Origin: Cyanobium sp.
GTDB lineage: Bacteria; Cyanobacteriota; Cyanobacteriia; PCC-6307; Cyanobiaceae
DNA length: 64,000 nt
NCBI GenBank assembly: GCA_044370835.1
Contig: JBILUS010000013.1
Coordinates: 10,231 to 74,230 of the forward strand
Reading direction: 5' to 3'
Position 1 is the first letter of the stretch, and each line of letters starts with the position of its first letter. Under the pieces are notes generated by a model. That model was not told the DNA's origin. It made no database searches and saw only the letters and a list, made by a program, of their open reading frames with translations. Below are positions 31,370 through 44,093 of this stretch, one piece after another. Made by a program: the position numbers and the translations under genes.

Positions 31370-32125
31370 TCAGTCGCGGCCGCGGAAGTCGGCCCAGCGC
31401 TCGCGCCAGGCCCCCAGGATCCGCTCCCGTTCCTGGCTGCGCACCAGACGGGTCAGAGCGAAGCGCAGCACCGCCACCAGGCCCACCAGCTGGAGCAGCC
31501 GGGGAAGCAGGGGCAGTTCGCCGAGGGTGCCGAGCAGGGCGCTGTACAGGCGCAGCAGCACCAACGCGGCGAGGAGCAGGCCCACGGCCCGAAGCGGGCC
31601 GCCGAGGGCCTCCCAGCGGGCCTGGAGTTCGGCGCCATCGAACCAGGCGCGCAGCTTGCCCACCAGCAGGTCCCACTCGCCCCCTTCACCGGCCTCGCCG
31701 GGTTCCAGGGGCGGCACCGACACCGTGCTGGCGATGCCGTCGCGGGGGGGGGCGGGCGCCGGGGCGGCAACAGCAGGGGGGGGCGCGGCTGGGGCCGTGA
31801 CCGGTTCGGCAGCGGCGGCGGCCCCAGCGGGGAGTTCGGTCTCCGGAGCCGTCTGTGGCGGCACGTCAGCGGCAAGCTCCGCCGCGACCTCAGCCTGCAC
31901 AAGCTCAGCCGCCGCCACCGGGGCCGCCAGCGGTGGAACGTCGACCTCTTCAGCCGCGTTGACGGCGTCGTTCTTGACGGCGTAGCTCTTGACGGCAGGC
32001 AGCACAGGCGCGGCAGTCTCAGGGACCACAGCGGCGGGCTCGACCGACGTGGGATCAAGAGCCTCGGGGGCCTCCTGCGGCGAAGCGGTGAGCTCGGTTT
32101 CGGGGGGCTGCGGAGTCTCGGCCAT
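31370..32125 (-). CDS. CAAD-domain (CURT1-like) thylakoid membrane protein with long disordered N-terminus
   Basis: GGEWDLL, two TM helices, LPLLPRLLQLVG, L.RSQER. Confidence 0.75.
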   Translation of the reverse strand: MAETPQPPETELTASPQEAPEALDPTSVEPAAVVPETAAPVLPAVKSYAVKNDAVNAAEEVDVPPLAAPVAAAELVQAEVAAELAADVPPQTAPETELPAGAAAAAEPVTAPAAPPPAVAAPAPAPPRDGIASTVSVPPLEPGEAGEGGEWDLLVGKLRAWFDGAELQARWEALGGPLRAVGLLLAALVLLRLYSALLGTLGELPLLPRLLQLVGLVAVLRFALTRLVRSQERERILGAWRERWADFRGRD

Positions 32126-32213
32126 GGAGCGACGGCGGGCTGGGCGGAGCTTACGGCCGTTTGCCGGGTTCGCCCTCCCGCCGGCCACGTCCCGGCAGCA
32201 CCCTTCGGCAGCC

Positions 32214-33413
32214 CTAGGCCTCCAGCGGCACCAGGGCCGGCCGGGAGGCCAGGGGCAGCAGGGGAAGGCGCAGGGGGAAGCGGTTGGCCACCAGCCGCTC
32301 CGCCAGGTCGGCGGCCCCCTCCTGGGCCAGGCGGGGACTGTGGCTCGGGGCGGCCGGGATGCTGCGGCCGGCCACCACGATCGCGCCGGCCTTGAGCGCC
32401 CCGTAGGACACGCCGCCGAAGCTGGGTTTGATCCGCCGCGGGATCGAAACATCCAGCACCGGCGCCTCCAGCTCCGCATCCGGGCAGGCGGCCTGGGCGG
32501 CGATGCCGCCATCGAGCAGGGGAATCGGCGCCGCGATCACCACCAGCAGGGCGGCGCCGTGCCCCTCGAAATGGCAGGCCCGCACCCAGCGGGGATCGAG
32601 GTCGTGCAGGTCCACGCTGAGGGCCGCCACCGCGCCGGGGGTGCGGGCATGGCCGCTGGGGAGCCGCTTCGGACGCGGCTGGTGGGCGCTGCCGCTGCCC
32701 ACCACCCAGCCGATGGCGCCCCCCACCAGCACGGGGGAACCGGGCCCCAGCAGCGCAAGGCCCGGCATGGCCAGGCCGATGCTGTCGGCCCCGGCGGCGG
32801 TGTAGAGGGCATGGGCAAAGGGCCCCAGCAAGGGACCCCAGGCGGTGCGCAGCACCCCCTCGGCGCTGCTCACCGCCACCAGCCCGTTTTCCACGATGCC
32901 CCGGTGGAGCAGCAGGCGGCCATGGCCGATGCGGTCCAGGTCCAGGCGGGTGTGGAGTTCCCGGCGGGGCTGCAGGGGCGTGACCTCACCGGCGGCGCTG
33001 AGGTCCACGCTGCGGCCGGCCAGGAGAGTCGCCAGCACCTGGGCCCCTCCGGAGCGGCCCCCATCGGGGACGCCCCCAATCGGCAGGAGCAGGTCGGAGC
33101 CGGCACCGCCGGCCAGGGCTTCCACCCCGCCCAGCTGGGGCTCCCGCAGCCGGATCGGCGGATCGGTGGGCCCCAGGTGCAGCAGCAGGCTCGCCTGGTC
33201 GGTGAAGCCCGCATCGGCTGCCACCACCACATCGGTGGCGGCATAGGCCTCCGCCAGGCCCACCTCGGCCACCAGGCGCCGAAACGCAGCCGCCACCCGC
33301 ACCCGCAGCTGGCCCCGCCGCTGGCGGTCGCGCAGCTCCTCCTCGCTGCGGGGGGGCAGGTCGGGCAGGCCGCGCCGCGGCGCCCCATCGGCGGTGGTGC
33401 TGCGGGGGGCCAT
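32214..33413 (-). CDS. DUF39 'homocysteine biosynthesis' protein (aspartate-semialdehyde sulfurtransferase-like), diverged
   Basis: DVVV, GPTDPPIR, GPGSPVLVGGAIGWVVGSG..H.P, APIPLLD..IA, PVLDVSIPRR, P.FG.VSY..LK.G. Confidence 0.7.
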   Translation of the reverse strand: MAPRSTTADGAPRRGLPDLPPRSEEELRDRQRRGQLRVRVAAAFRRLVAEVGLAEAYAATDVVVAADAGFTDQASLLLHLGPTDPPIRLREPQLGGVEALAGGAGSDLLLPIGGVPDGGRSGGAQVLATLLAGRSVDLSAAGEVTPLQPRRELHTRLDLDRIGHGRLLLHRGIVENGLVAVSSAEGVLRTAWGPLLGPFAHALYTAAGADSIGLAMPGLALLGPGSPVLVGGAIGWVVGSGSAHQPRPKRLPSGHARTPGAVAALSVDLHDLDPRWVRACHFEGHGAALLVVIAAPIPLLDGGIAAQAACPDAELEAPVLDVSIPRRIKPSFGGVSYGALKAGAIVVAGRSIPAAPSHSPRLAQEGAADLAERLVANRFPLRLPLLPLASRPALVPLEA

Positions 33414-33572
33414 GGCCGCGGGGGCTGCCTTGGGGCGGATCGACTCCCAGCCTGGCGGGCCCTGCACCCCCTGGCCAGACCTGGGCCGGAGGCGGAGTCC
33501 TACGGATGGCATCGGCGGCGGGCCAGAGGGGAGGGGCTTCGATAAAGTGGAGCCAGTCCCTGGCGGTCGTGC

Positions 33573-36227
33573 ATGGCGGATCCCACCGGACCCGGCGAAA
33601 ACAGTCCCGGCGAATCCGACGGACGGATCATCCAGACCGATCTCCGCAACGAGATGTCGCGCTCCTATCTGGAGTACGCGATGAGCGTGATCGTGGGCCG
33701 GGCCCTGCCCGATGCCCGCGACGGCCTCAAGCCCGTGCACCGGCGCATCCTCTACGCGATGTACGAGCTGGGGCTCACCAACGACCGCCCCTACCGCAAA
33801 TGCGCCCGTGTGGTGGGCGAAGTGCTGGGCAAATACCACCCCCATGGCGACACCGCGGTGTACGACGCCCTGGTGCGCATGGCGCAGGACTTCTCGATGC
33901 GCATGCCCCTGATTGATGGGCACGGCAACTTCGGCTCGGTCGACAACGACCCTCCGGCTGCGATGCGGTACACCGAATCGCGGCTGCAGGCGCTCACCAC
34001 CGATGCCCTGCTGGAGGACATCGAGAGCGAGACCGTCGACTTCGTCGACAACTTCGATGGCTCCCAGCAGGAGCCCACCGTGATGCCGGCGCGGATTCCG
34101 CAGCTGCTGCTCAACGGCTCCACCGGCATCGCCGTGGGGATGGCCACCAACATCCCCCCCCACAACCTCACCGAACTGATCGACGGCCTGCTGGCCCTGA
34201 TCGCCAACCCCGAGCTCGACGACCGGGCCCTGATGGCGATCATCCCCGGGCCCGACTTCCCCACCGGCGGCCAGATTCTCGGCCGCCGCGGCATCCGCGA
34301 GACCTACACCACCGGCCGGGGCTCGGTGACGATGCGCGGCGTGGCCAACATCGAAACGATCGAGGCCAAGGGCCGGCCCGATCGCGATGCGGTGATCATC
34401 ACCGAGCTCCCTTACCAGACCAACAAGGCGGCCCTGATCGAGCGGATCGCCGAGCTGGTCAACGACAAGAAGCTCGAGGGCATCGCCGACATCCGCGACG
34501 AAAGCGACCGCGACGGCATGCGGATCGTGATCGAGCTGCGGCGCGATGCCTATCCGCAGGTGGTGCTCAACAACCTGTTCAAGCTGACGCCGCTGCAGAG
34601 CAACTTCAACGCCTACCTGCTGGCGCTGGTGAAGGGTGAGCCGATCCTGCTCACCCTGCGCAAGATGCTCGAGGTGTTCCTCGACTTCCGGGTCGAGACG
34701 ATCGAGCGCCGCACCCGCTACCTGCTGCGCAAGGCCGAGGAGCGCGACCACATCCTGCTCGGCCTGCTGATCGCCCTCGACAACCTCGACGCGATCATCG
34801 CCCTGATCCGCTCGGCCGCCGACACCGCCTCGGCCCGCCAGGGCCTGATGGACCAGTTCGGCCTCAGCGAGGTCCAGGCTGACGCGATCCTGCAGATGCA
34901 GCTGCGGCGCCTCACCGCCCTCGAGGCGGACAAGATCCGGCTGGAGCACGAGGATCTGCTCGCCAAGATCACTGACTACCAGGACATCCTGGCGCGGCGG
35001 GAGCGGGTGTTCGGCCTGATCAACGATGAGCTCCAGGCGATCCGCAGCCGCTACGACTCCCCCCGCCGCACCGAGATTCTCGATCTCGAGGGCGGCCTCG
35101 ACGACATCGATCTGATCGCCAACGAGCGCTCGGTGGTGCTGCTCACCGAGAACGGCTACCTCAAGCGGATGCCGGTGAGCGAGTTCGAGGCCACCAGCCG
35201 CGGCACCCGCGGCAAGGCCGGCACCCGCAGCCAGGGTGAGGAGGCGGTGAAGCTGTTCATCAGCTGCAACGACCACGATTCGCTCCTGCTGTTCAGCGAC
35301 CGTGGCGTGGTGTATTCGGTGCCGGCCTACCGGGTGCCGATCTGCAGCCGCGCCGCCAAGGGCACGCCGATCGTGCAGCTGCTGCCGATCCCCCGCGAGG
35401 AGGCGATCACTTCCCTGGTGTCGGTGAGTGCCTTCGACGACGACGTGCAGCTGGTGATGCTGACCAGCGGCGGCTACGTGAAGCGCACCCGTCTCTCGGC
35501 CTTCAGCAACATCCGCTCCAACGGCCTGATCGCCATCTCCCTTGAGGAGGGCGACGACCTGCGCTGGGTGCGGCTTGCCCTCCCCGGCGACAGCGTGCTG
35601 ATCGGCTCTCTCAAGGGCATGACGATCCACTTCCGGCTCAGCGATGAGGAGCTGCGGCCCCTGGGGCGCACGGCGCGCGGGGTGCGGGCCATGAACCTGC
35701 GCGAGGGCGACCGGCTGGTGAGCATGGATGTGCTGCCCGCCGAACTCGCCGACCGGGTGGCCAGCAGTGAGGCCGCCGGTGAGGACGACGAGGCTGAGGA
35801 GGTGGCGGCCAGCGAGGGCCCCTGGGTGCTGGTGGCCAGCGCCAGCGGTCTGGGCAAGCGGGTGCCGGTGGATCAGTTCCGGCTCCAGAAGCGGGCCGGC
35901 ATGGGCTTGCGCTGCATGAAGTTCCGCCGCGACGGCGATGTGCTGGTGGGCCTCAAGGTGCTCGGCGCTGGCGAGGAATTGCTGCTGGTGAGCGAACGGG
36001 GCGTGATCGTGCGGATGCCCGCCGATGCCATTCCCCAGCAGTCGCGGGCGGCCACCGGCGTACGCCTGCAGCGCATCGATGCCGGCGATCGTCTGGCCGA
36101 GGTGGTGCTGGTGCCGCCGGCGCCCGAGGGCGAGGAGAGCGAGGTCGACGACGATCCGGGCAGCACCAACGCGGCGGCCACCGATGCCCCCAGCGACAGC
36201 GCGGACGCCGCGGCCACCGATGCCTGA
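33573..36227 (+). CDS. gyrA: DNA gyrase subunit A
   Basis: [41 protein letters not shown], GyrA-box-like RGTRG, beta-pinwheel repeats. Confidence 0.97.
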
Positions 36228-37353
36228 TCACCACGGCGATCTCTGGATCGCCAACACGGTGAGCGATCTGATCCAGGGGGACATCAACGAACATCTGCCC
36301 CTGGAAGCCATCCCCCTGAAAGGCGACGTGCTGGGCCTGGGCACCACCACCAGCATCGACAACGGCGAGCTCAGCTTCCTTCCCAACAGCGACGGCAACA
36401 CCACCATCTGGAAGTGTGATGCGGCCCGGGGCGGCATCCGGGCCCTGCAAAGCGGGGATGGCAGCGCCCATTTCCCTTATGTGTGCTTCAGCGCCGATGC
36501 CACGGGCGTGCGGCTGCCGGTGGATCCGGCCGAGCTCGGCGATGTGGAGGGCCAACCCCTGCAGACGCTGCTAGGGCCGTTGATCACCCGCTTGCGCCGT
36601 GAAGGGCGCCTGGTGGAGGCCCCGATCTATGGGATTCGCCTCCGCTGCCGGTGGCACGCGCTGGTGATCACCGTGTCCTCGAAGCTGTGCATGGCGCAGC
36701 AACGCCGCAACCAACGCTTCCGTGCCGTCTGCGAGCCCGCACAACCGGCGGGGGGCAGCATCTATGACCAACTCCAGCACTTCCGTCTCAGCGAGAGCGA
36801 TCCGGCAGACCGCAGCGATCCGATCCGTTTCCTCGGGCGTTCGCTCGATTGGGAGTGCTGCGGCTTCTGGGACACCGATCCCAGCGCCGGTCGGGTCACG
36901 ATCCCGCAGCCGGACGACCACCTGCATCTGCACGGCTGCAGCACGGATCTGCTCCACGGAGGGCACCTCCGTCATGAACACCCGGGTAGCCGGCTGCGGG
37001 GGATCGAGCAGCTGTCGATCTACCCCCTGCAGCGCCTGCACCAGCTGGCGAGCGATCTGGCGGTGGAGCGGCCGTTGTTTGAAGCCGGGATAGTCCAGTT
37101 CAGCGTTGTCAATCGCGGTGCGATGGACATCAGCGATGTGGGGGTTGCCATCGTGATCGACGATCGCTATTCCGATCACCGCTATCTGCGGCTGCCCTGG
37201 CTGGCGGCCGGGCAGGAGGAGCGTTACAGCCTTGGCCTCGATCTCTCCCCCGGGCCGCACCGCCTGGAGGTGATCGCCGATCCGGAGCAACAGATTCTGG
37301 AGGCTGCCGAGCTGCAGGCCAACAATCGCGCCGTTCTCGAGGTGCAGCTGTGA
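36220..37353 (+). CDS. Alpha-acetolactate-decarboxylase-fold protein fused to a C-terminal CARDB (Ig-like) domain
   Basis: GD.LGLGT...NGEL, YGIR, GF, HLHLH...GGH; then DLAV...V.NRG...LAAG...H.LEV.ADP...I.E...NN. Confidence 0.7.
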
Positions 37354-38606
37354 ACGGGGTGAGCGCCGGGCCGATCGCCGAGGTGCTGGTGATCGGCTCC
37401 GGGCCCGCCGCCCTGGCGATCGCCGCCGCCCTGGTGGAGCGGGGGCTACGGGTGGAGGCCCTGGCCCTGGAGGATCCTGCGGCCCCCTGGCCCAACACCT
37501 ACGGCATCTGGGGTCCGGAGGCGGATCGGGCCGGCCTGGGCCACCTGCTGGAGCACCGCTGGAGCAACACCGTGAGCTGGTTCGGGCCCGAGCCCACCCG
37601 CCACGGCATCGACTACGGCCTGTTCAACCAACGCGGCCTGCAGCAGCACTGGCTGGATCAGCTCGCGGCCGCCGGCGTGGTGTGGCACCGGGGCCGAGCC
37701 GAGGCCATCCGCCACACCGCGACGGATTCGGAGGTCTGCACCGCCGGCGGCGATCGCCTGAAGGCCCGGCTGGTGGTGGATGCCAGCGGCCATGAGCCGG
37801 TGTTCGTGCAACGCCCCACGGGGGAGCCGATCGCGGAGCAGGCCGCCTACGGCATCGTGGGTCGCTTCTCAAGGCCACCGGTGGATCCCGATCAGTTTGT
37901 GCTGATGGATTTCCGTGCCGACCACCTCAGCGAGGTTGAGCGCCGCAACGAATCCCCCACCTTCCTCTACGCCATGGATCTGGGCGAGGGCCGTTTCTTC
38001 GTGGAGGAGACCTCCCTGGCCCTGGCCCCGCCCGTGCCCTATCCGGTGTTGCAGGAGCGGCTGCAGCGTCGTTTGGCCCACGCCGGCATCACCGTGGCGG
38101 CGATCGAGCACCAGGAGTTTTGCCTCTTCCCCATGAATCTGCCCCTGCCCGATCTCGAGCAGCGGGTGGTGGGCTTCGGTGGCGCCGCCTCGATGGTGCA
38201 TCCCGCCTCCGGCTATCTGGTGGGCTCCCTGCTGCGACGGGCGCCGGATCTGGCGGACGCCATCGCTGGAGCCCTGGCTGATCCCGCCCTCGATGGCGCC
38301 GCCGTGGCCCGCCAGGCCTGGGAGGGCCTCTGGCCCCTGGAACTGCGGCGCCGCCACGCCCTGTTCCGCTTCGGCCTCGAGAAGCTGATGCGCTACCCCG
38401 AAGAACAGCTGCGGACGTTTTTCATCACCTTCTTCGCCCTGCCCCGCCAGGAATGGAGCGGCTTTCTCACCAACACCCTGCCCCTGCCCGAACTGGTGGG
38501 GGCCATGGTGCGGCTGTTTGCCACAGCCCCCTGGAGCGTGCGCTGGGGCCTGATGCAGCAACAGGGCCGGGAGCTGGGCCTGCTGGGCAGGGTTTTGGCG
38601 CCCTGA
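37350..38606 (+). CDS. crtL: Lycopene cyclase (CrtL type)
   Basis: VIGSGPAA, WPNTYGIW, DASGH, LMDFR, PTFLYAM, FVEETSL, GGAASMVHPASGY. Confidence 0.92.
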   Translation: MNGVSAGPIAEVLVIGSGPAALAIAAALVERGLRVEALALEDPAAPWPNTYGIWGPEADRAGLGHLLEHRWSNTVSWFGPEPTRHGIDYGLFNQRGLQQHWLDQLAAAGVVWHRGRAEAIRHTATDSEVCTAGGDRLKARLVVDASGHEPVFVQRPTGEPIAEQAAYGIVGRFSRPPVDPDQFVLMDFRADHLSEVERRNESPTFLYAMDLGEGRFFVEETSLALAPPVPYPVLQERLQRRLAHAGITVAAIEHQEFCLFPMNLPLPDLEQRVVGFGGAASMVHPASGYLVGSLLRRAPDLADAIAGALADPALDGAAVARQAWEGLWPLELRRRHALFRFGLEKLMRYPEEQLRTFFITFFALPRQEWSGFLTNTLPLPELVGAMVRLFATAPWSVRWGLMQQQGRELGLLGRVLAP

Positions 38607-38746
38607 TGGGGTTCCTGGCTGATCACGATGCGATTCCGCTGTCGATGGGCTGCGGTGCCTCAACGAAGCAGCCTGGAGCAGCCCGCTGCCCCCCATCAGC
38701 CAACGCGGTCCTCCATGATGCGGATCTCAGGAAGGGGTTCGACACC

Positions 38747-39358
38747 ATGGCCTCGGGCGTCGCCAGCACGGGTGTTCCGGCGGAATCGGCCGCCGATTGC
38801 CGCACCGAAGTGCTTCACCTCCTACGGGATCGGGGCCACGCCAGTTCGGCCGCCGAGGCGCCCCGGGTGCGGGAGCTGCTGCAGCGGCTGGAGCATCTGC
38901 AGCCCGCCAACCTCGCGGCCGAGAGCGACCGGCTCACGGGGGTGTGGGAACTGCGCTGGAGCAGCAGCCGCCAGCCCTATCTGGCGGTGGCGCCCTGGCT
39001 GGAAAATCTGCAGCTGCTCGATCCGCGGCGGGGCCGGGCCATGAACCTGCTGCGCCTGGCCGGCCTGGTCGCTCCCCTGGCCGGCATCGCGGTGCAGGCC
39101 CGCATCACGGTGGAGGGCACCCAGCGGGTGGGTGTGCGCTTCGTGCGGGGCGGCTGGCTTGGCCCCCGGATCGGCCAGCGGCGCCTCCAACTGCTGCGCG
39201 AGGTGAACCAGAGCTTTCCGGCCTGGCTGGACATCACCGTGCTGGATGACGACCTGCGGGTCTGCCGCGGTAACGCCGGCACCCTGTTCGCCCTGGTGCG
39301 CCGCCCGGAGTTGCAGCTGGAGGACTTCTTCGGCGACCAGCCCGGGAGTACGGGGTGA
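38747..39358 (+). CDS. PAP/fibrillin family protein
   Basis: L.G.WEL.WSSS, NLQLLD, AWLDIT.LD..LR..RGN.GT.F.L; start uncertain (38606 also possible). Confidence 0.8.
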   Translation: MASGVASTGVPAESAADCRTEVLHLLRDRGHASSAAEAPRVRELLQRLEHLQPANLAAESDRLTGVWELRWSSSRQPYLAVAPWLENLQLLDPRRGRAMNLLRLAGLVAPLAGIAVQARITVEGTQRVGVRFVRGGWLGPRIGQRRLQLLREVNQSFPAWLDITVLDDDLRVCRGNAGTLFALVRRPELQLEDFFGDQPGSTG

Positions 39359-39463: not shown

Positions 39464-40264
39464 TTGGACGCAGCCCCGGCCACCACCGTCGCTCAAGCGG
39501 CACCGAAGTGGACCCTGTTTCTCAAGGTGCTGCCCCTCACCGCCCTGTTTGCCCTTGCCAAGCTTGGCGTGCACCGGCTTGGGCTGGAACCCTGGGAGTT
39601 CGATTCCCTGACGGGATCGCTGTTTGGTGCTTCCACCTTCGTGCTGGCGTTCGTGTTGAGCGGCACCCTGGCCGCCTACAACGCCAGCGAAGACATGGTG
39701 GTGCAGTTCATCAACGCGGTGGAATCGATTGAGGATATCAATCACTACCTCGCCCGCCTCCAGCCCCAGCTCGAAACCGCCAACCTCACCACCTGCCTGG
39801 CCGATCTGCTGAGGCAGCTGGCGCAATGGCTGGCCAATCAAGTTGGGTTTGAGGTGATCGATGCCCGCCTTGCCGAGCTCACCCAGATCCTGGCGGACCT
39901 GCGCCAGAACAGTGGCGACTCCGTTGTCGATCGAGGTTTGCCTGAGCTCGCAAGGCTCCGGATCCTGGTCAACCGGATGGCCAGCAATCGAGACAGTGAG
40001 TTTCTGGGACCCGCCTATGCGATGCTCGAGATTTTTCTGGTTGGCGCCGTTTTGGCGCTTGTGCTGATCGGGGCTGATCGATTCAGTGAAAATATGGTGG
40101 TTTCCTGCTTTTTGTTCACCTCTTTCACCTATTTGTTGCTGCTGATTCGTGATCTTGATAATCCCTTCCAGTACGACGGCAGCTCCTGCGTTGATGTTGA
40201 CCTATCCGTTTTGCATTCCTGCCGGCAGCGATTGCTGGGCCGGGGAGGCGCCACGCCTAATTGA
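39464..40264 (+). CDS. Bestrophin-like (DUF4239-type) membrane protein
   Basis: 2+2 TM layout with a cytoplasmic helical insert and LIRDLDNPF motif. Confidence 0.6.
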   Translation: MDAAPATTVAQAAPKWTLFLKVLPLTALFALAKLGVHRLGLEPWEFDSLTGSLFGASTFVLAFVLSGTLAAYNASEDMVVQFINAVESIEDINHYLARLQPQLETANLTTCLADLLRQLAQWLANQVGFEVIDARLAELTQILADLRQNSGDSVVDRGLPELARLRILVNRMASNRDSEFLGPAYAMLEIFLVGAVLALVLIGADRFSENMVVSCFLFTSFTYLLLLIRDLDNPFQYDGSSCVDVDLSVLHSCRQRLLGRGGATPN

Positions 40265-40314
40265 GCATGAGTGAGCCTGATTGAGTTTGCTTCCACGTTC
40301 ATCTCTGTAAAGCC

Positions 40315-42468
40315 ATGGTACTGAAGCTTTTTCGACAACTCGGGGTGCAATCCAAGGTTCTGGCCATGGTGCTGCTGGCCAGTCTGCTGAGCCTGCTGCT
40401 CACAGGCCTGGTGAGCTACAGCATCGGCAGCCATGTGCTCACCACTGCGGTCACGAATCAATTGGTTGCCCTGCGCAACAGCCGCGTGGAAGCGATTAGG
40501 GATTACTTCGGTTTCCTTAGTAACCACGTGCTCACGATGGGCGAGGGTTTTCTGGTGATTGATGGCCTTAAGGATTTTCGTGCCGCCTATCCCAAGCTTC
40601 AGAACACCACCCTTAGCGCGGAGCAGCAGAAAAAACTCGTTGCCTATTACACCGATGTCTTCATTCCCAGGCTCAAAAAGAATGTCGACGGCGAGCCTGC
40701 ACTGGCCACCTACCTGCCCAATACTCCTGCCGATCGCTACATCACCTATCACTACACGGCCAACAATCCCCGCGCCCCGCATCTGTATGAGTTGCAGGAT
40801 GCTGGTGATGGCAGTGAATACAGTGCTGTCCATCGCAAATACAGTCAACGCTTCCGCCGTCTTGCCGAGGTCTTTGGCTATCGCGACATCTTTCTCGTTG
40901 ATGTCGATAGCGCCGACGTTTTGTTTTCCGTGGCCAAAGAAGCGGATATGGGCTCCAACCTCAGGACAGGCGTTTATGCGGACACGGCTCTTGCTAAGAC
41001 GTTTGATGAGATCCGCAAATCGCGTGATCCCAATTTTGTTTATATCTCGGATATTGAACACTACAAGGCCAGTTTCGGTGAGCCGGCCCTTTTTATCGGC
41101 ACCACCGTGTTTGATGGCGATCAGTTCATCGGTGCCCTGATCTATCAGGTGAATCCTGGGGCGATTGACCGGGTGATGACCGATAACAAGAAGTGGGAGC
41201 AGCAGGGCCTTGGTAAAACAGGAGAGTCATTCCTTGTGGCCCAGGATTTCAAGCTCCGCTCCTCCCCAAGGGCGTTTCTGGAAAACCCAGATCAATACTT
41301 CCAAACCCTTCGTGCTCAAGGCGTTACGAAAGAGAAGATTGATTGGATCAAGAGGGCCAATAGTCCGGTTCTGATCCAGGAGGTGAGAACCGAGGGGGCA
41401 AAACGGGCTCTCGCCGGCCAGACCGGTGAGGCTGAGGAAGTCGATTACCGCGGCAAGCGTGTGTTCAAGTCCTTTCAGCCGATCCGGATTGGCAATTTTG
41501 AGTGGGGCTTGGTGACCAAGATCGATAAGGCCGAAGCGCTGCAGGGGGTGTATCGCCTGCGCGATGCCCTGCTGCTGCTGGGTGCCATCCTCATCCCCCT
41601 GCTCACCCTGATGTCCCTGGCATTGGCGCGCAGTTTCATCCAGCCGATTCAGCGCTTGATGCGGGCCACCAAGCAGATCATTGCCGGCGATAGCTCCGTG
41701 CAGGTGAAGGTGGATTCTGCCGATGAATTCGGCGAGCTTTCCCGCTCCTTCAACAGCATGGCCACCACCCTGCAGCAGCGGGAGGAGTCGATCCGCTCCC
41801 AGCTGCAGGAGAACGACCGGCTGCTGCTCAATATCCTGCCGGCCCGCACGGCCGAGCGGCTCAAGCAGGGGGAACAGTCGATCACCGAGCAATATCCGAG
41901 CGTTTCGGTGCTCTATGCCGATCTCGAGGGCTTCCAGGACCTTTCCGCCGAACTGGCGCCCGACCAGGCGATCGTGGTGCTCAATGAATTGATCGGCGCC
42001 TTCGATGATGCTGCTGAACGGTGCGGCGTCGAGAAGCTGCGCAGCACAGGCTCCAACTACCTGGCGGTCTGCGGCCTTTCGGTGCCGCGGATCGACGACG
42101 AGAAGCGCACCGTGGAGCTGGCCCTGGCCATGCTGCAGGTGGTGGAGCGGCTCAGCGCCAAGCATGGCGTGCGCCTCAGCCTCGATATCGGCATCCACAC
42201 GGGCGCCCTGGCCGCCGGTGTGGTGGGCCGGGGCAAGTTTTATTACGACGTCTGGGGCGAGACGATGACCATCGCCCGGGCCATCCACGCCTCCCCCAAG
42301 CAGAACGTGATCCAGGTCACCGAGCCGGTGGTGCGGGCCCTCGATGGGCTTTACAGCTTCGACCCCCTGACGCCCGTTGAGGTGAAGGGCGAGGGGGTGA
42401 TTCCTATCTGGGAGTTGACCCGGTTGGATGCCGCCCTGGTTTCCGCTGCTGCGGGAGGCGCAGGATGA
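40315..42468 (+). CDS. Cache-sensor / HAMP / class III nucleotide cyclase protein with degenerate active site
   Basis: TM - extracytoplasmic domain - TM - HAMP (DEFGEL..SFN.M) - LLLNILP - YADLEGF - GIHTG - YDVWGE. Confidence 0.88.
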   Translation: MVLKLFRQLGVQSKVLAMVLLASLLSLLLTGLVSYSIGSHVLTTAVTNQLVALRNSRVEAIRDYFGFLSNHVLTMGEGFLVIDGLKDFRAAYPKLQNTTLSAEQQKKLVAYYTDVFIPRLKKNVDGEPALATYLPNTPADRYITYHYTANNPRAPHLYELQDAGDGSEYSAVHRKYSQRFRRLAEVFGYRDIFLVDVDSADVLFSVAKEADMGSNLRTGVYADTALAKTFDEIRKSRDPNFVYISDIEHYKASFGEPALFIGTTVFDGDQFIGALIYQVNPGAIDRVMTDNKKWEQQGLGKTGESFLVAQDFKLRSSPRAFLENPDQYFQTLRAQGVTKEKIDWIKRANSPVLIQEVRTEGAKRALAGQTGEAEEVDYRGKRVFKSFQPIRIGNFEWGLVTKIDKAEALQGVYRLRDALLLLGAILIPLLTLMSLALARSFIQPIQRLMRATKQIIAGDSSVQVKVDSADEFGELSRSFNSMATTLQQREESIRSQLQENDRLLLNILPARTAERLKQGEQSITEQYPSVSVLYADLEGFQDLSAELAPDQAIVVLNELIGAFDDAAERCGVEKLRSTGSNYLAVCGLSVPRIDDEKRTVELALAMLQVVERLSAKHGVRLSLDIGIHTGALAAGVVGRGKFYYDVWGETMTIARAIHASPKQNVIQVTEPVVRALDGLYSFDPLTPVEVKGEGVIPIWELTRLDAALVSAAAGGAG

Positions 42469-44093
42469 GCAATCCGCTCCTGTTCGCTGCCGCCAGCGCC
42501 GCCAGTCCCAGCGGCAGCACAACCCTGATCGCGCCGGGCGCCGCGGCTGCGGCAGCCCTCGGACACCTCAATCCGTTCTGGGTTTTCGTGCTGGTGCTGG
42601 GCTTCCCGCTGCTGATGCTCCTGCTCGGCGAGGGACTCCGTTGGCTGCAGCGCCACCAACCGGCCTTCGTGGCGCCGCTGGCCATCCTGCGCAACTGGAC
42701 CCTGCCGGCGCTGGCCCTCTATTTGCTGCTGGTGGATCTGCTGGCGCGGCCCCGATCGGCGGTGGGGGTGCGGATCAGCGAGACCCTGGTGTGGATCACC
42801 CTGATTCTGGCGGCCCTCTCGCTGCTGAATGTGATCCTGTTTGAGGGGGCACCGCAGGGCAGCTGGCAGGCCAAGGTGCCCAAGCTGTTCCGCGATCTGG
42901 GCCGCTTCCTGCTGGTGCTGATCGGCTCGGCGATCGTGCTCTCCAGCGTCTGGGGGGCCGATCTGGGCGGCTTCCTCACCGCCCTGGGGGTGGGATCGCT
43001 GGTGCTGGGTCTAGCCCTGCAGGACAGCCTCGGCAACATCTTCTCCGGCGTGGCCCTGCTGTTCGAGCAGCCGATCGGCATGGGCGACTGGGTGCAGATC
43101 GGCGACAGCCTCGGCGAGGTGGTGGAGGTGAACTGGCGTTCGGTGCACCTCAAGACCTTCAATGACGATCTGAGGGTGATCCCGAACTCGGAACTCGCCA
43201 AGGGCCAGTTCATCAACTTCAGCCGTCCAACACCCCTGCACCGCGTCGAGGTGCCGATCTCCTTTTCTTACGACGATCCCCCCAATCGGGTGCGCCAGCT
43301 GCTGATTGGCGCGGCGCTGGAAATTCCCGCTGTTCTGGATACACCGCCGCCGGATGTGGTGGTGGTGAGTTATGGGGATTTCGCGATCAACTACAAGGTT
43401 CAGGTCTTTGCGCCCGATTACCGCACCGGTGACGGAATCCAGGATGAGATCAACCGGCGCATTTGGTATCTGGCCAAGCGGCATGGCCTCACGATGCCCT
43501 ACCCGATGCAGCAGGAGGTTCCCTACGAGTCCACCGCCCCCACGCCCGTTCAGCAGGGTGTGGCCTCGCTGCAGTTGCTGAAGAGCACACCCGGCTTCGC
43601 CTCCCTCTCCAGCGAACGGCTGGAGCAGCTTCTGGCCGATTGTCAGGTTCTCTCCTATGCCACCCATGAGGTGGTGGTGCATCGCCTGATGCCTCTCGAT
43701 GGCCTCTACCTGATCCTGAGTGGCGAGGCCGAGTTGGTGGTGCCTGATGTCAACGGCCGCTCCTGCAGCCTGGGGGTGCTGTTGCAGGGGGAATGCTTCG
43801 GTGAGAAGAGCTCACTGCTGCATGGCCGTATTGCCGAAACCACCGTGCGCGCCTGCGACGACCTCGAGGTGCTCGTGATCCCTGCCGAGCGCCTGCAGGA
43901 GGTGTTGGTGGAGTCTCCCCGCCTGGCCTCCGATCTGGCCGAGGTGATCGAGATTCGTCAGAGGGCCGCGGCGAAGGTGCTGGAGGGAGGGCTGCAGAGG
44001 CGACGATCTGCGGCAACCCCGTTGCCACAACCTGTCGAAGGCCCGGCGGTGGATGGGAGTACCGCTGGGGGTGTGCAACGGTTGCTGGGTTGA
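42465..44093 (+). CDS. MscS-family mechanosensitive channel with C-terminal cNMP-binding domain (bCNG-like)
   Basis: LGLALQDSLGNIFSG, GDWVQIG, IPNS.L, FSY..P; C-terminal GE.FGE...TVRA; ATGA overlap with the cyclase gene. Confidence 0.9.
   Translation: MSNPLLFAAASAASPSGSTTLIAPGAAAAAALGHLNPFWVFVLVLGFPLLMLLLGEGLRWLQRHQPAFVAPLAILRNWTLPALALYLLLVDLLARPRSAVGVRISETLVWITLILAALSLLNVILFEGAPQGSWQAKVPKLFRDLGRFLLVLIGSAIVLSSVWGADLGGFLTALGVGSLVLGLALQDSLGNIFSGVALLFEQPIGMGDWVQIGDSLGEVVEVNWRSVHLKTFNDDLRVIPNSELAKGQFINFSRPTPLHRVEVPISFSYDDPPNRVRQLLIGAALEIPAVLDTPPPDVVVVSYGDFAINYKVQVFAPDYRTGDGIQDEINRRIWYLAKRHGLTMPYPMQQEVPYESTAPTPVQQGVASLQLLKSTPGFASLSSERLEQLLADCQVLSYATHEVVVHRLMPLDGLYLILSGEAELVVPDVNGRSCSLGVLLQGECFGEKSSLLHGRIAETTVRACDDLEVLVIPAERLQEVLVESPRLASDLAEVIEIRQRAAAKVLEGGLQRRRSAATPLPQPVEGPAVDGSTAGGVQRLLG

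Follow-up and report, generated by a model that had tools for sequence, protein, structure and literature searches.

In a contig of Cyanobium sp., a gene coding for a 377-aa protein (36220..37353, + strand) lies between gyrA and a crtL-type lycopene cyclase gene, which raises the questions of what kind of protein it is and whether its place between these two genes has a functional meaning. The window analyzed is a stretch of 64,000 nucleotides. Upstream of the target, gyrA (33573..36227, +) codes for DNA gyrase subunit A of 884 aa (Pfam DNA_topoisoIV, E 1.5e-161; six DNA_gyraseA_C matches), and downstream the lycopene cyclase gene (37350..38606, +) codes for a protein of 418 aa (Pfam Lycopene_cycl, E 5.5e-83). 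Located 3' of crtL is an ORF with a PAP/fibrillin domain (38453..39358, +; Pfam PAP_fibrillin, E 2e-15, aa 126-281), the real start of which is probably inside the ORF. Divergent from gyrA is an HcyBio-family gene (32214..33500, - strand; Pfam HcyBio, E 2.7e-53); it is found 5' of gyrA in nearly all loci of synteny class A and is part of the conserved neighborhood of that class. As described in the initial annotation, the target overlaps both of its neighbors. Its ATG at 36220 is located within the final codons of gyrA; the gyrA stop codon extends to 36227, giving an 8-bp overlap (ATGCCTGA), and its TGA (37351-37353) shares the 4-bp GTGA with the crtL start codon GTG at 37350. An alternative in-frame start upstream (ATG 36025) is not supported, because more than 100 homologs begin within a few residues of MPD/MAD; homologs of about 377 aa numbered 448. 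The GC content of the target equals that of the neighboring genes, no PADLOC or PHROGs match indicating a defense or phage origin was obtained, and a consensus scan for promoters and terminators around the gene gave no signal above shuffled sequences.

The N-terminal part of the protein was assigned to the α-acetolactate decarboxylase (ALDC) fold. In the AlphaFold (AF2) model (pLDDT 87, pTM 0.84), residues 7-276 (36238..37047, +) are predicted to adopt this fold. The top 11 matches of a Foldseek search against the PDB were all ALDC structures (probability 1.00, E ~1e-9, TM on target 0.67-0.77), followed by the CARDB domain of PF1109, which bears out the fold proposed for the N-terminal ~270 aa in the initial annotation. 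The landmarks on which that proposal was based are all found in order in the translation, namely the motif at aa 35-51, YGIR (137-140), GF (215-216), and the His motif (234-249). Similarly, the profile of the target family matched the ALDC structure 4bt2 (E 4e-5), and hhalign against canonical cyanobacterial ALDCs gave a probability of 97% (E 7.9e-11, 207 columns). The target sequence itself is below the family thresholds, with 14.7 bits against AAL_decarboxy (PF03306; cut-off 25; only aa 10-54 matched) and 12.7 bits against TIGR01252 (cut-off 180.65). Distant full-length ALDC+CARDB homologs pass PF03306 across the whole domain (E 1e-13 to 3e-14). No PF03306 match was found in the genome of the window at E <= 0.01. 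To our knowledge, no paper links ALDC with CARDB or deals with an "acetolactate decarboxylase-like" protein.

ALDC (BudA/AlsD) is a single-domain, single-reaction family of acetoin fermentation that uses three His for Zn; Arg145 binds the carboxylate and enolate, and Glu253 donates the proton. Judging from the alignments, the target retains the metal center, Glu50 in the position of Glu65, and the framework of GLGT and D-x4-GGH. In the motif at aa 39-50 (36334..36369, +), E50 aligned with Glu65 in the alignments to 4bt2 and to canonical ALDCs, and G39, G41, T42, T43, N48, G49, and E50 are unchanged even in the most distant homologs. In the His-rich motif at aa 234-254 (36919..36981, +), H236, H238, and H249 correspond to the ALDC Zn triad H194/H196/H207 with identical 2/11 spacing, so that the HxH..GGH triad noted earlier is present as a predicted Zn site. 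H236, H238, D243, and H249 are unchanged in every homolog examined, and the triad, E50, and D243 are constant in homologs as far apart as those of picocyanobacteria and an archaeon. The motif also has a clade-specific extension, H252-E253-H254, of which H252 and H254 are found in 80/80 picocyanobacterial sequences and are variable in other cyanobacteria.

Two catalytic residues of ALDC are missing from the target. In two independent profile alignments, I150-T151-V152 falls on the TRT / A-R145-T motif (TRT -> ITV), which places Thr151 (36670..36672, +) at the position of the catalytic Arg145, and the replacement of the substrate Arg suspected in the initial annotation is thus borne out. All 80 picocyanobacterial homologs have Thr at this position; in 4 other cyanobacteria, it is Thr or Ser. 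The alignment to ALDC stops at ...SDLA (aa ~281), where CARDB follows, and the tail bearing Glu253 is gone. Canonical ALDCs of the same genus keep both the Arg and the C-terminal acidic tail. In addition, the Cys-containing insertion reported before was found as a family-specific loop at aa 156-179 (36685..36756, +), which is a gap in the ALDC alignments and has a pLDDT <50. Its first half, (K155)LCMxQQRRN, is conserved, with K155, C157, R163, and N164 in 80/80 picocyanobacterial sequences, and its second half is variable, Ala/Ser-rich, and predicted to be disordered. Around the motif strands, the picocyanobacterial proteins have also gained His and Cys residues (C89, C157, C213/214, C240, H252, H254).

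The C-terminal residues 278-377 (37051..37350, +) form a canonical CARDB Ig-like domain, which stands where the C-terminal tail of ALDC would be. The target passes the gathering cut-off of Pfam CARDB (PF07705; 24.1 bits vs. 22.7, E 4e-5, aa 292-364), and its homologs score up to 40.7 bits. The family profile matched the CARDB structures 2l0d (E 6e-6) and 2kl6/3idu (E ~1e-4), and Foldseek retrieved 2kl6, 3idu, and 2l0d (probability 1.00, TM on target 0.66-0.72), in agreement with the Ig domain named in the initial annotation. CARDB proteins are mostly large extracellular or surface proteins. The target does not share this location and is predicted to be a soluble, cytoplasmic protein. It lacks a signal peptide, its ALDC domain beginning as early as residue 7 and its N-terminus being not hydrophobic. 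The ortholog of Synechococcus elongatus PCC 7942, Synpcc7942_1445, is likewise negative in the published SignalP, Phobius, JGI, TATFIND, SecretomeP, and PilFind calls (PMC9260433).

Taken together, the ALDC fold, the Zn triad, the Glu65 equivalent, the change from Arg to Thr, the Cys loop, the CARDB domain, and the lack of a signal peptide lead us to infer that a Zn enzyme with a different substrate, as first suggested for this gene, would be the most economical reading of the sequence. The target would most likely bind a divalent metal, Zn2+ by analogy, and act as an enzyme. As in ALDC, the metal may polarize an α-hydroxy-carbonyl or 2-oxo-type ligand, with an enol(ate) as the intermediate. 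Its substrate, and possibly also its chemistry, would differ from the conversion of acetolactate to acetoin, because Arg145 is replaced by a conserved Thr/Ser, the Glu253 tail is absent, and a basic loop (K155, R163) and His/Cys residues have been added. The explanation that we favor, with modest confidence, is an accessory ALDC-fold + CARDB protein that acts as a metal enzyme on a substrate other than acetolactate and came to its place between gyrA and crtL by insertion. A bolder form of it is put forward tentatively: the cyanobacterial ALDC+CARDB proteins might be a new enzyme class in the ALDC superfamily, with a three-His metal center, Thr/Ser in place of Arg, and enol(ate) chemistry on a non-acetolactate substrate (e.g., ketol isomerization, or tautomerization or decarboxylation of a 2-oxo acid). 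Such proteins might have a conditional metabolite repair or metal-linked role, with CARDB in place of the ALDC tail at the active site.

The His and Cys residues could also be read as those of a protein without catalytic activity that binds Cu, Zn, or Ni as a buffer, chaperone, or sensor through the triad and the added residues (HLHLHGCS...GGHLHHEHPG, C89, C157, CC213/214), which we regard as unlikely. In most homologs, a stretch of 23 residues contains eight His and one Cys, the clade-specific Cys/His are invariant, and this conserved cluster would fit metal binding equally well. However, conservation of the extra His/Cys is confined to picocyanobacteria, and it is the residues of the ALDC pocket (E50, D243, GLGTT, triad) that all homologs share. 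The gene neighborhoods were also considered; Cyanobiaceae alone show at least three unrelated contexts for the family, and about nine more were observed outside this group. A gene for a DUF305 protein (E 4e-47; DUF305 is the CopM-type copper-binding family) follows the homolog in the S. elongatus-like genome G154, and on one metagenome contig the homolog is divergent from a multicopper oxidase gene. However, these are just 2 of the ~12 contexts, and no metal transporter or regulator adjoins the target in the 64-kb window. Besides the copper theme, there are themes of 2-oxo acids (an indolepyruvate decarboxylase (IPDC)-like ThDP enzyme, an aminotransferase) and of sugar/redox metabolism (fbaII, GFO_IDH_MocA). 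None is decisive, and the ~12 neighborhoods gave no consistent clue to the substrate.

A genuine acetolactate decarboxylase, in which the loop residues K155/R162/R163 took the place of Arg145 and another acid (e.g., E24 or E253) that of the Glu253 tail, appears improbable. The Zn triad, the Glu65 equivalent, and the overall fold are kept, and the invariant basic loop lies beside the Arg145 strand, where it might stand in for the lost residue. In Cyanobacterium sp. DS4, the homolog is located 108 bp downstream of a gene for a pyruvate/indolepyruvate decarboxylase-type (PDC/IPDC-like) ThDP enzyme, and enzymes of this type can make acetoin or acetolactate as side products. The archaeal homolog is even named "acetolactate decarboxylase" by NCBI. 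However, the scores are below both family cut-offs, the Arg145 position is strictly Thr/Ser, and the C-terminal tail is replaced. Furthermore, neither alsS/budB nor butanediol dehydrogenase genes were found near family members in the ~12 contexts, and the same genus has canonical ALDCs with all catalytic residues.

Export by a non-classical route, with CARDB serving as it does in cell-surface proteins, is very improbable for the target. A CARDB domain is a typical component of surface proteins; among the distant ALDC+CARDB homologs, four have a signal or lipoprotein-like peptide at the N-terminus, and the gene of one such homolog is followed by that of a cell-wall-binding thioredoxin. Against this, the N-terminal features of the target and the six negative predictions for the S. 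elongatus ortholog described above speak for a protein that is not exported, and the many invariant free Cys/His would suit a reducing cytoplasm.

The position of the target was interpreted in the initial annotation as a coupling between gyrA and crtL, and as a statement about function this did not hold. The order gyrA-target-crtL was observed in ~50 loci, and gyrA-crtL-target in one. In seven relatives, gyrA and crtL are contiguous with no target between them; three of these belong to the same genus, and one, WH7803, has the target elsewhere. In marine Synechococcus and S. elongatus, the homolog is beside fbaII. Each synteny class is confined to its own clade of the gene tree, and all gyrA/crtL-linked copies form one clade, which indicates a single insertion event. 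These results show that gyrA-crtL is an ancestral gene pair into which the target was inserted in one freshwater clade. The placement implies co-transcription there and no role in gyrase or carotenoid function; the position beside crtL is incidental, and no carotenoid link is supported. That the protein works with its neighbors, for example by modifying carotenoids, by assisting lycopene cyclase, or in association with gyrase, is therefore largely refuted by synteny and the gene tree and hardly credible: the two overlaps, with possible translational coupling in this genome, and the recurrence of the order are outweighed by the relatives with an uninterrupted pair, the one-clade origin of the linked copies, the unrelated contexts elsewhere, and the ~1.1 kb of extra sequence between target and crtL in seven class A loci.

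According to the phyletic profile, the family is present in 24 of 98 good Cyanobiaceae genomes, including 4 of 37 of the same genus, and pseudogenes occur in two genomes. The dN/dS values among orthologs (0.07-0.28) indicate purifying selection. These results show an accessory gene with vertical inheritance inside clades, a few relocations, and frequent losses, and the family is conserved yet dispensable. Canonical ALDC is carried by 6 of the 37 genomes of the genus, with no overlap with the 4 that carry the target, and these numbers are too small to have a meaning; the idea of complementarity between the two was dropped. The ALDC+CARDB architecture is not peculiar to this organism. It is shared by S. 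elongatus, Cyanothece PCC 7425, Cyanobacterium sp. DS4, a Xenococcaceae MAG, and a Hydrothermarchaeales archaeon, and versions with signal peptides are found in metagenome bacteria; a single-sequence search with one secreted homolog matched itself alone.

Our results indicate that the family represents a new and so far unannotated form within the ALDC superfamily, a conserved branch with a new architecture in which the metal center is kept and two catalytic residues are lost, and that the target probably acts as a metal enzyme on a substrate other than acetolactate. Apart from the archaeal member, databases name these proteins "CARDB domain-containing protein" or "hypothetical protein". Since only CARDB is seen by the databases, the enzyme-like part goes unannotated in hundreds of genomes, and a few members are probably mislabeled as acetolactate decarboxylase. 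Members of the family are found in picocyanobacteria, which are ecologically dominant, and in S. elongatus PCC 7942, a genetic model for which mutants exist in an RB-TnSeq library. Once assigned, the reaction would widen the chemistry known for the fold, and cyanobacterial genomes would have one frequent "hypothetical" fewer. The impact is likely to be moderate, since the gene is accessory, non-essential, and tied to no major pathway.

Among the known systems compared, Synpcc7942_1445 is the only family member with experimental data. It was identified by gene lengths and spacing, is annotated as "hypothetical protein" or "CARDB domain-containing protein", and the locus tags Synpcc7942_1444-1446 were found in the literature in supplementary tables only. 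The gene is transcribed (~250-560 counts per sample; PMC9260433, Tables S3 ff.) and was non-essential in RB-TnSeq (PMC9260433). The likeness is at the level of orthologs (41-43% identity over ~370 aa, E 1e-85 to 1e-88), and the two proteins share both domains, the triad, E50, and the Thr in place of Arg145. However, it has no C213/C214, and its gene is convergent with fbaII and near icfA, whereas the target lies between gyrA and crtL. The PPC/DUF296 family (PF03479) gave weak profile matches to the C-terminal lobe of distant ALDC+CARDB homologs (E 6e-5 to 0.04), two of which are labeled "DNA-binding protein with PD1-like motif" by JGI. However, PPC proteins are single small domains, and the target itself has no PF03479 match. 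The CARDB domains of PF1109 from Pyrococcus furiosus (PDB 2kl6/3idu) and MA_4588 (PDB 2l0d) are matched by the C-terminal 100 aa of the target, which keep the N-x-G and DP...E...NN signature; here, the domain occurs only once, joined to an enzyme-like part, and the protein lacks a signal peptide. From α-acetolactate decarboxylase (AlsD/BudA, EC 4.1.1.5, PF03306; PDB 4bt2-4bt7, 5xne, 6j3d, 6inc), the target differs by a sequence identity of ~15%, sub-threshold Pfam and TIGRFAM scores, a conserved Thr for Arg145, CARDB for the Glu253 tail, two insertions (aa ~156-179 and ~186-207), extra conserved His/Cys, and a gene that never adjoins alsS/budB/budC. In contrast, the same two-lobed fold (TM on target ~0.7), the H-x-H-x10-H triad, GLGT...(D/N)GE with the Glu65 equivalent, and D-x4-GGH are common to both.

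The target gene is a CDS of 377 codons (36220..37353, + strand) in a high-GC setting (~69% around the locus). Upstream on the same strand lies gyrA (33573..36227; Pfam DNA_topoisoIV, E 1.5e-161), with an HcyBio gene divergent upstream of it, and downstream lies the lycopene cyclase ORF crtL (37350..38606; Pfam Lycopene_cycl, E 5.5e-83), followed by a PAP/fibrillin ORF. The overlaps reported in the initial annotation were confirmed from the sequence: the target ATG falls inside the final gyrA codons (8 bp; ATGCCTGA), and its TGA overlaps the GTG of the lycopene cyclase by 4 bp. A longer in-frame start at 36025 was unsupported because all homologues begin near MPD/MAD. The orthologues are 373-389 aa long and 60-88% identical, and pairwise dN/dS was 0.07-0.28 for pairs with unsaturated dS. 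Therefore, the target is a real gene under selection. Elsewhere in the window, an ORF at 31370..32512 (- strand) carries a C-terminal CAAD domain (PF14159, E 5e-15) after a long Pro/Ala-rich region and overlaps several spurious high-GC ORFs. In addition, GC falls from ~0.70 to ~0.53 over 39464..44093, a region holding a bestrophin-like ORF (sub-threshold Pfam match, E 1e-5) and then a cyclase/MscS cassette.

In a single-sequence search, CARDB was the sole Pfam domain above cut-off (aa 292-364, 24.1 vs 22.7 bits). The α-acetolactate decarboxylase (ALDC) model AAL_decarboxy (PF03306) covered only aa 10-54 and stayed below threshold (14.7 bits vs 25), and TIGR01252 scored 12.7 against a cut-off of 180.65. 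An exhaustive search of 1.8 billion cluster representatives gave few full-length members. The five most distant (P0167, P0181, P0190, P0197, and P0207) each carried both domains, and three of the five passed PF03306 over essentially the entire domain (E 2.5e-7 to 2.8e-14). A family profile of 22 sequences matched the B. brevis ALDC 4bt2 (E 4e-5, positions 5-257) and the CARDB structures 2l0d, 2kl6, and 3idu (E 6e-6 to 1e-4), and hhalign aligned it with four canonical ALDCs from related cyanobacterial genomes (97% probability, E 7.9e-11, 207 columns). The AlphaFold2 model, with the family alignment as input, had a mean pLDDT of 87.2 and a pTM of 0.84, and fell below pLDDT 50 only at residues 156-179. 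When this model was searched against the PDB, the top 11 matches were all ALDCs (prob 1.00, E 8e-10 to 1e-8, TM on target 0.67-0.77), followed by the CARDB protein PF1109 (TM 0.66-0.72); interleaved transglutaminase and glycosidase matches had TM <0.2. From these profile and structure matches, the predicted assignment of an ALDC fold followed by CARDB, as first proposed, is secure. Our literature search found no paper discussing an ALDC+CARDB family. Precomputed Pfam strings show the architecture for a few proteins, but it is undescribed.

The ALDC-like landmarks recognized at first reading were each found in the translation, and were mapped through the printed 4bt2 alignment, in which the HLH...GGH motif coincides with the published H194, H196, and H207. 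By this mapping, His194/196/207 correspond to H236/H238/H249 with identical 2/11 spacing, Glu65 to E50, and Asp201 to D243. Among 80 picocyanobacterial sequences and four from other cyanobacteria, E24, E50, C89, R140, W211, H236, H238, D243, and H249 were 100% conserved, so the proposed Zn triad stands as an invariant predicted metal site. C157, C213, C214, C240, H252, and H254 were invariant within picocyanobacteria only, and R163 was found in 80/80 picocyanobacteria (R or K in the others). The substrate Arg is indeed replaced: HMMER and hhalign alignments both place T151 at Arg145 (80/80 picocyanobacteria; T or S in the remaining four sequences), the ALDC motif A-R-T (T-R-T or I/Y-R-V in cyanobacterial ALDCs) reads I150-T151-V152, and the Arg is absent from the entire ALDC+CARDB family, including members that pass PF03306. 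The Cys-containing insertion lies in the region of residues 156-179; its loop has an invariant K155-L-C-M-x-Q-Q-R-R-N, with C157, and then a variable Ala/Ser-rich stretch. The ALDC tail with Glu253 has no counterpart, and the alignment stops at SDLA (~aa 281), the start of the first CARDB strand. It is the ALDC metal pocket whose residues are conserved throughout, and this argues for a metal-dependent, probably catalytic function. We favour, by somewhat more than even chances, a metal enzyme acting on a substrate other than acetolactate. Of the new Zn enzyme proposed in the initial annotation, the retained Zn triad and the replaced substrate Arg hold, and its activity is a prediction.

The neighbourhoods of homologues gave scattered clues to the function. 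A non-catalytic metal-binding role is unlikely, and copper-related neighbours in two independent contexts speak for it: a DUF305 protein 316 bp downstream in the S. elongatus-like genome G154 (L019:460-1128), and a divergently adjacent multicopper oxidase on one metagenome contig (L125:2974-4785). Others suggest 2-oxo acids. In Cyanobacterium sp. DS4 (L128:1633-6107, CP084098.1), the homologue lies 108 bp after a PDC/IPDC-like ThDP enzyme (sub-threshold TIGR03393 match, E 1e-123), and both share their orientation, and possibly an operon, with a DHA2-type MFS efflux pump; in a Xenococcaceae MAG, an aminotransferase lies upstream. Further neighbours were class II fructose-bisphosphate aldolase (fbaII), GFO/IDH/MocA oxidoreductases, and AdoHcy hydrolase beside an archaeal homologue; one secreted homologue is followed by a cell-wall-binding thioredoxin. 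No theme among the compared contexts recurs enough to assign a substrate.

True ALDC activity is improbable. Acetolactate decarboxylation is disfavoured because Arg145 and the Glu253 tail are strictly lost, because the equivalog cut-offs failed, and because als/bud genes are absent from the neighbourhoods of homologues, and because canonical ALDCs co-exist in the genus. By sequence, the target falls outside the ALDC equivalog family: it lacks two defining residues and scores below the cut-offs. PF03306 was above cut-off in six genomes of the genus, one match being interrupted by a stop codon, and had no match at E <= 0.01 in the window's own genome. The canonical cyanobacterial ALDCs at L104, L105, L107, and L109 (PF03306 E 1e-71 to 7e-82) have an N-terminal extension of ~42-52 aa not covered by Pfam, which by eye resembles a ribbon-helix-helix motif (e.g. 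...LQAALGKRSQETGQTPAEIVAIALRQYLE...).

In an S. elongatus genome (2,696,255 bp), nadA and icfA are followed by a gene for a small secreted protein, then by the target, and last by fbaII in convergent orientation. By gene lengths and spacing, this locus matches Synpcc7942_1443-1447, with 1443 as fba (1497217-1498290), 1447 as carbonate dehydratase, and 1444 and 1446 in the set (supplements of PMC9260433). The orthologue Synpcc7942_1445 (1498702-1499817, minus strand, 1116 bp, 371 codons plus stop) is annotated as 'hypothetical protein', 'Not in COGs', 'Non-essential', and not 'Cyano Conserved'; it is well represented in the transposon library, has RNA-seq counts of ~250-560 in every sample, like icfA, and carries no flag for differential expression (PMC9260433). 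An exported or surface protein is very improbable, since JGI, SignalP, Phobius, TATFIND, SecretomeP, and PilFind call its signal peptide negative; SSPRED alone calls it 'Type-III' (PMC9260433).

Gene context over 80 related loci showed three main arrangements. HcyBio(-) gyrA target crtL occurred in ~50 of the 80, one having the order gyrA-crtL-target; ~1.1 kb extra separated target and crtL in seven of these loci (L040, L048, L051, L057, L059, L060, and L075). Twelve marine Synechococcus loci had purS-purQ-LD-carboxypeptidase-target, convergent with fbaII as in S. elongatus, and this placement opposite fbaII is probably the older one. The window's own genome has fbaII on a different contig, beside GFO and accD, without the target. 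Among the remaining loci, a Cyanobium BSA11S-like group had a recurrent upstream YCII-like gene (~6-7 loci) and a convergent downstream HemN-like radical-SAM gene (4 loci). The arrangements were clade-specific on the maximum-likelihood tree (6 changes vs a minimum of 4; 0/200 shuffles matched), with every gyrA/crtL-linked copy in one clade that also includes L058, on a short contig. Seven relatives have crtL directly after gyrA, among them WH7803, whose target is elsewhere, a Prochlorococcus-sized genome, and three members of the window's genus. Therefore, the gene was inserted once into a pre-existing gyrA-crtL pair. Of the proposed coupling, the overlaps stand and imply probable co-transcription in this clade; the functional link does not, and a carotenoid or gyrase partner is hardly credible given the bare pairs and the copies elsewhere.

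The gene was present in 24/98 good-quality genomes of the family (15/64 genera), in 4/37 of the window's genus, and in 9/361 across the class, with no match in the family's small genomes that were listed (1.3-1.8 Mb). In 5.8 billion proteins, matches came from Cyanobium, Vulcanococcus, and Synechococcus (RS9909, UW140, WH7803, WH8017, MIT S1220, NOUM97013), and any name they carried was 'hypothetical protein' or 'CARDB domain-containing protein'. The cyanobacteria outside the family that carry it are S. elongatus, Cyanothece PCC 7425 (UniRef B8HPH5), DS4, and the Xenococcaceae MAG; beyond cyanobacteria, homologues were a protein of a Hydrothermarchaeales archaeon ('acetolactate decarboxylase') and four metagenome proteins with signal peptides. 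Broken copies in G047 (C1:1618327-1619438, two ORFs) and G090 (C22:24737-25334, three short fragments) indicate ongoing loss in Cyanobiaceae. Though sparse in the window's genus, the gene is common in neighbouring genera that share its insertion site, and the terminal branch leading to the window's copy is long (0.32); repeated loss or recombination transfer via the conserved flanks would each account for this.

Taken together, profiles and model place the target within the ALDC structural superfamily, with a bona fide CARDB domain fused to it. The enzyme-like domain is unannotated in most cyanobacterial members, this one included. The target has in common with canonical ALDC the fold, the Zn triad, and the equivalents of Glu65 and Asp201, but differs in having Thr at Arg145 and CARDB in place of the Glu253 tail.
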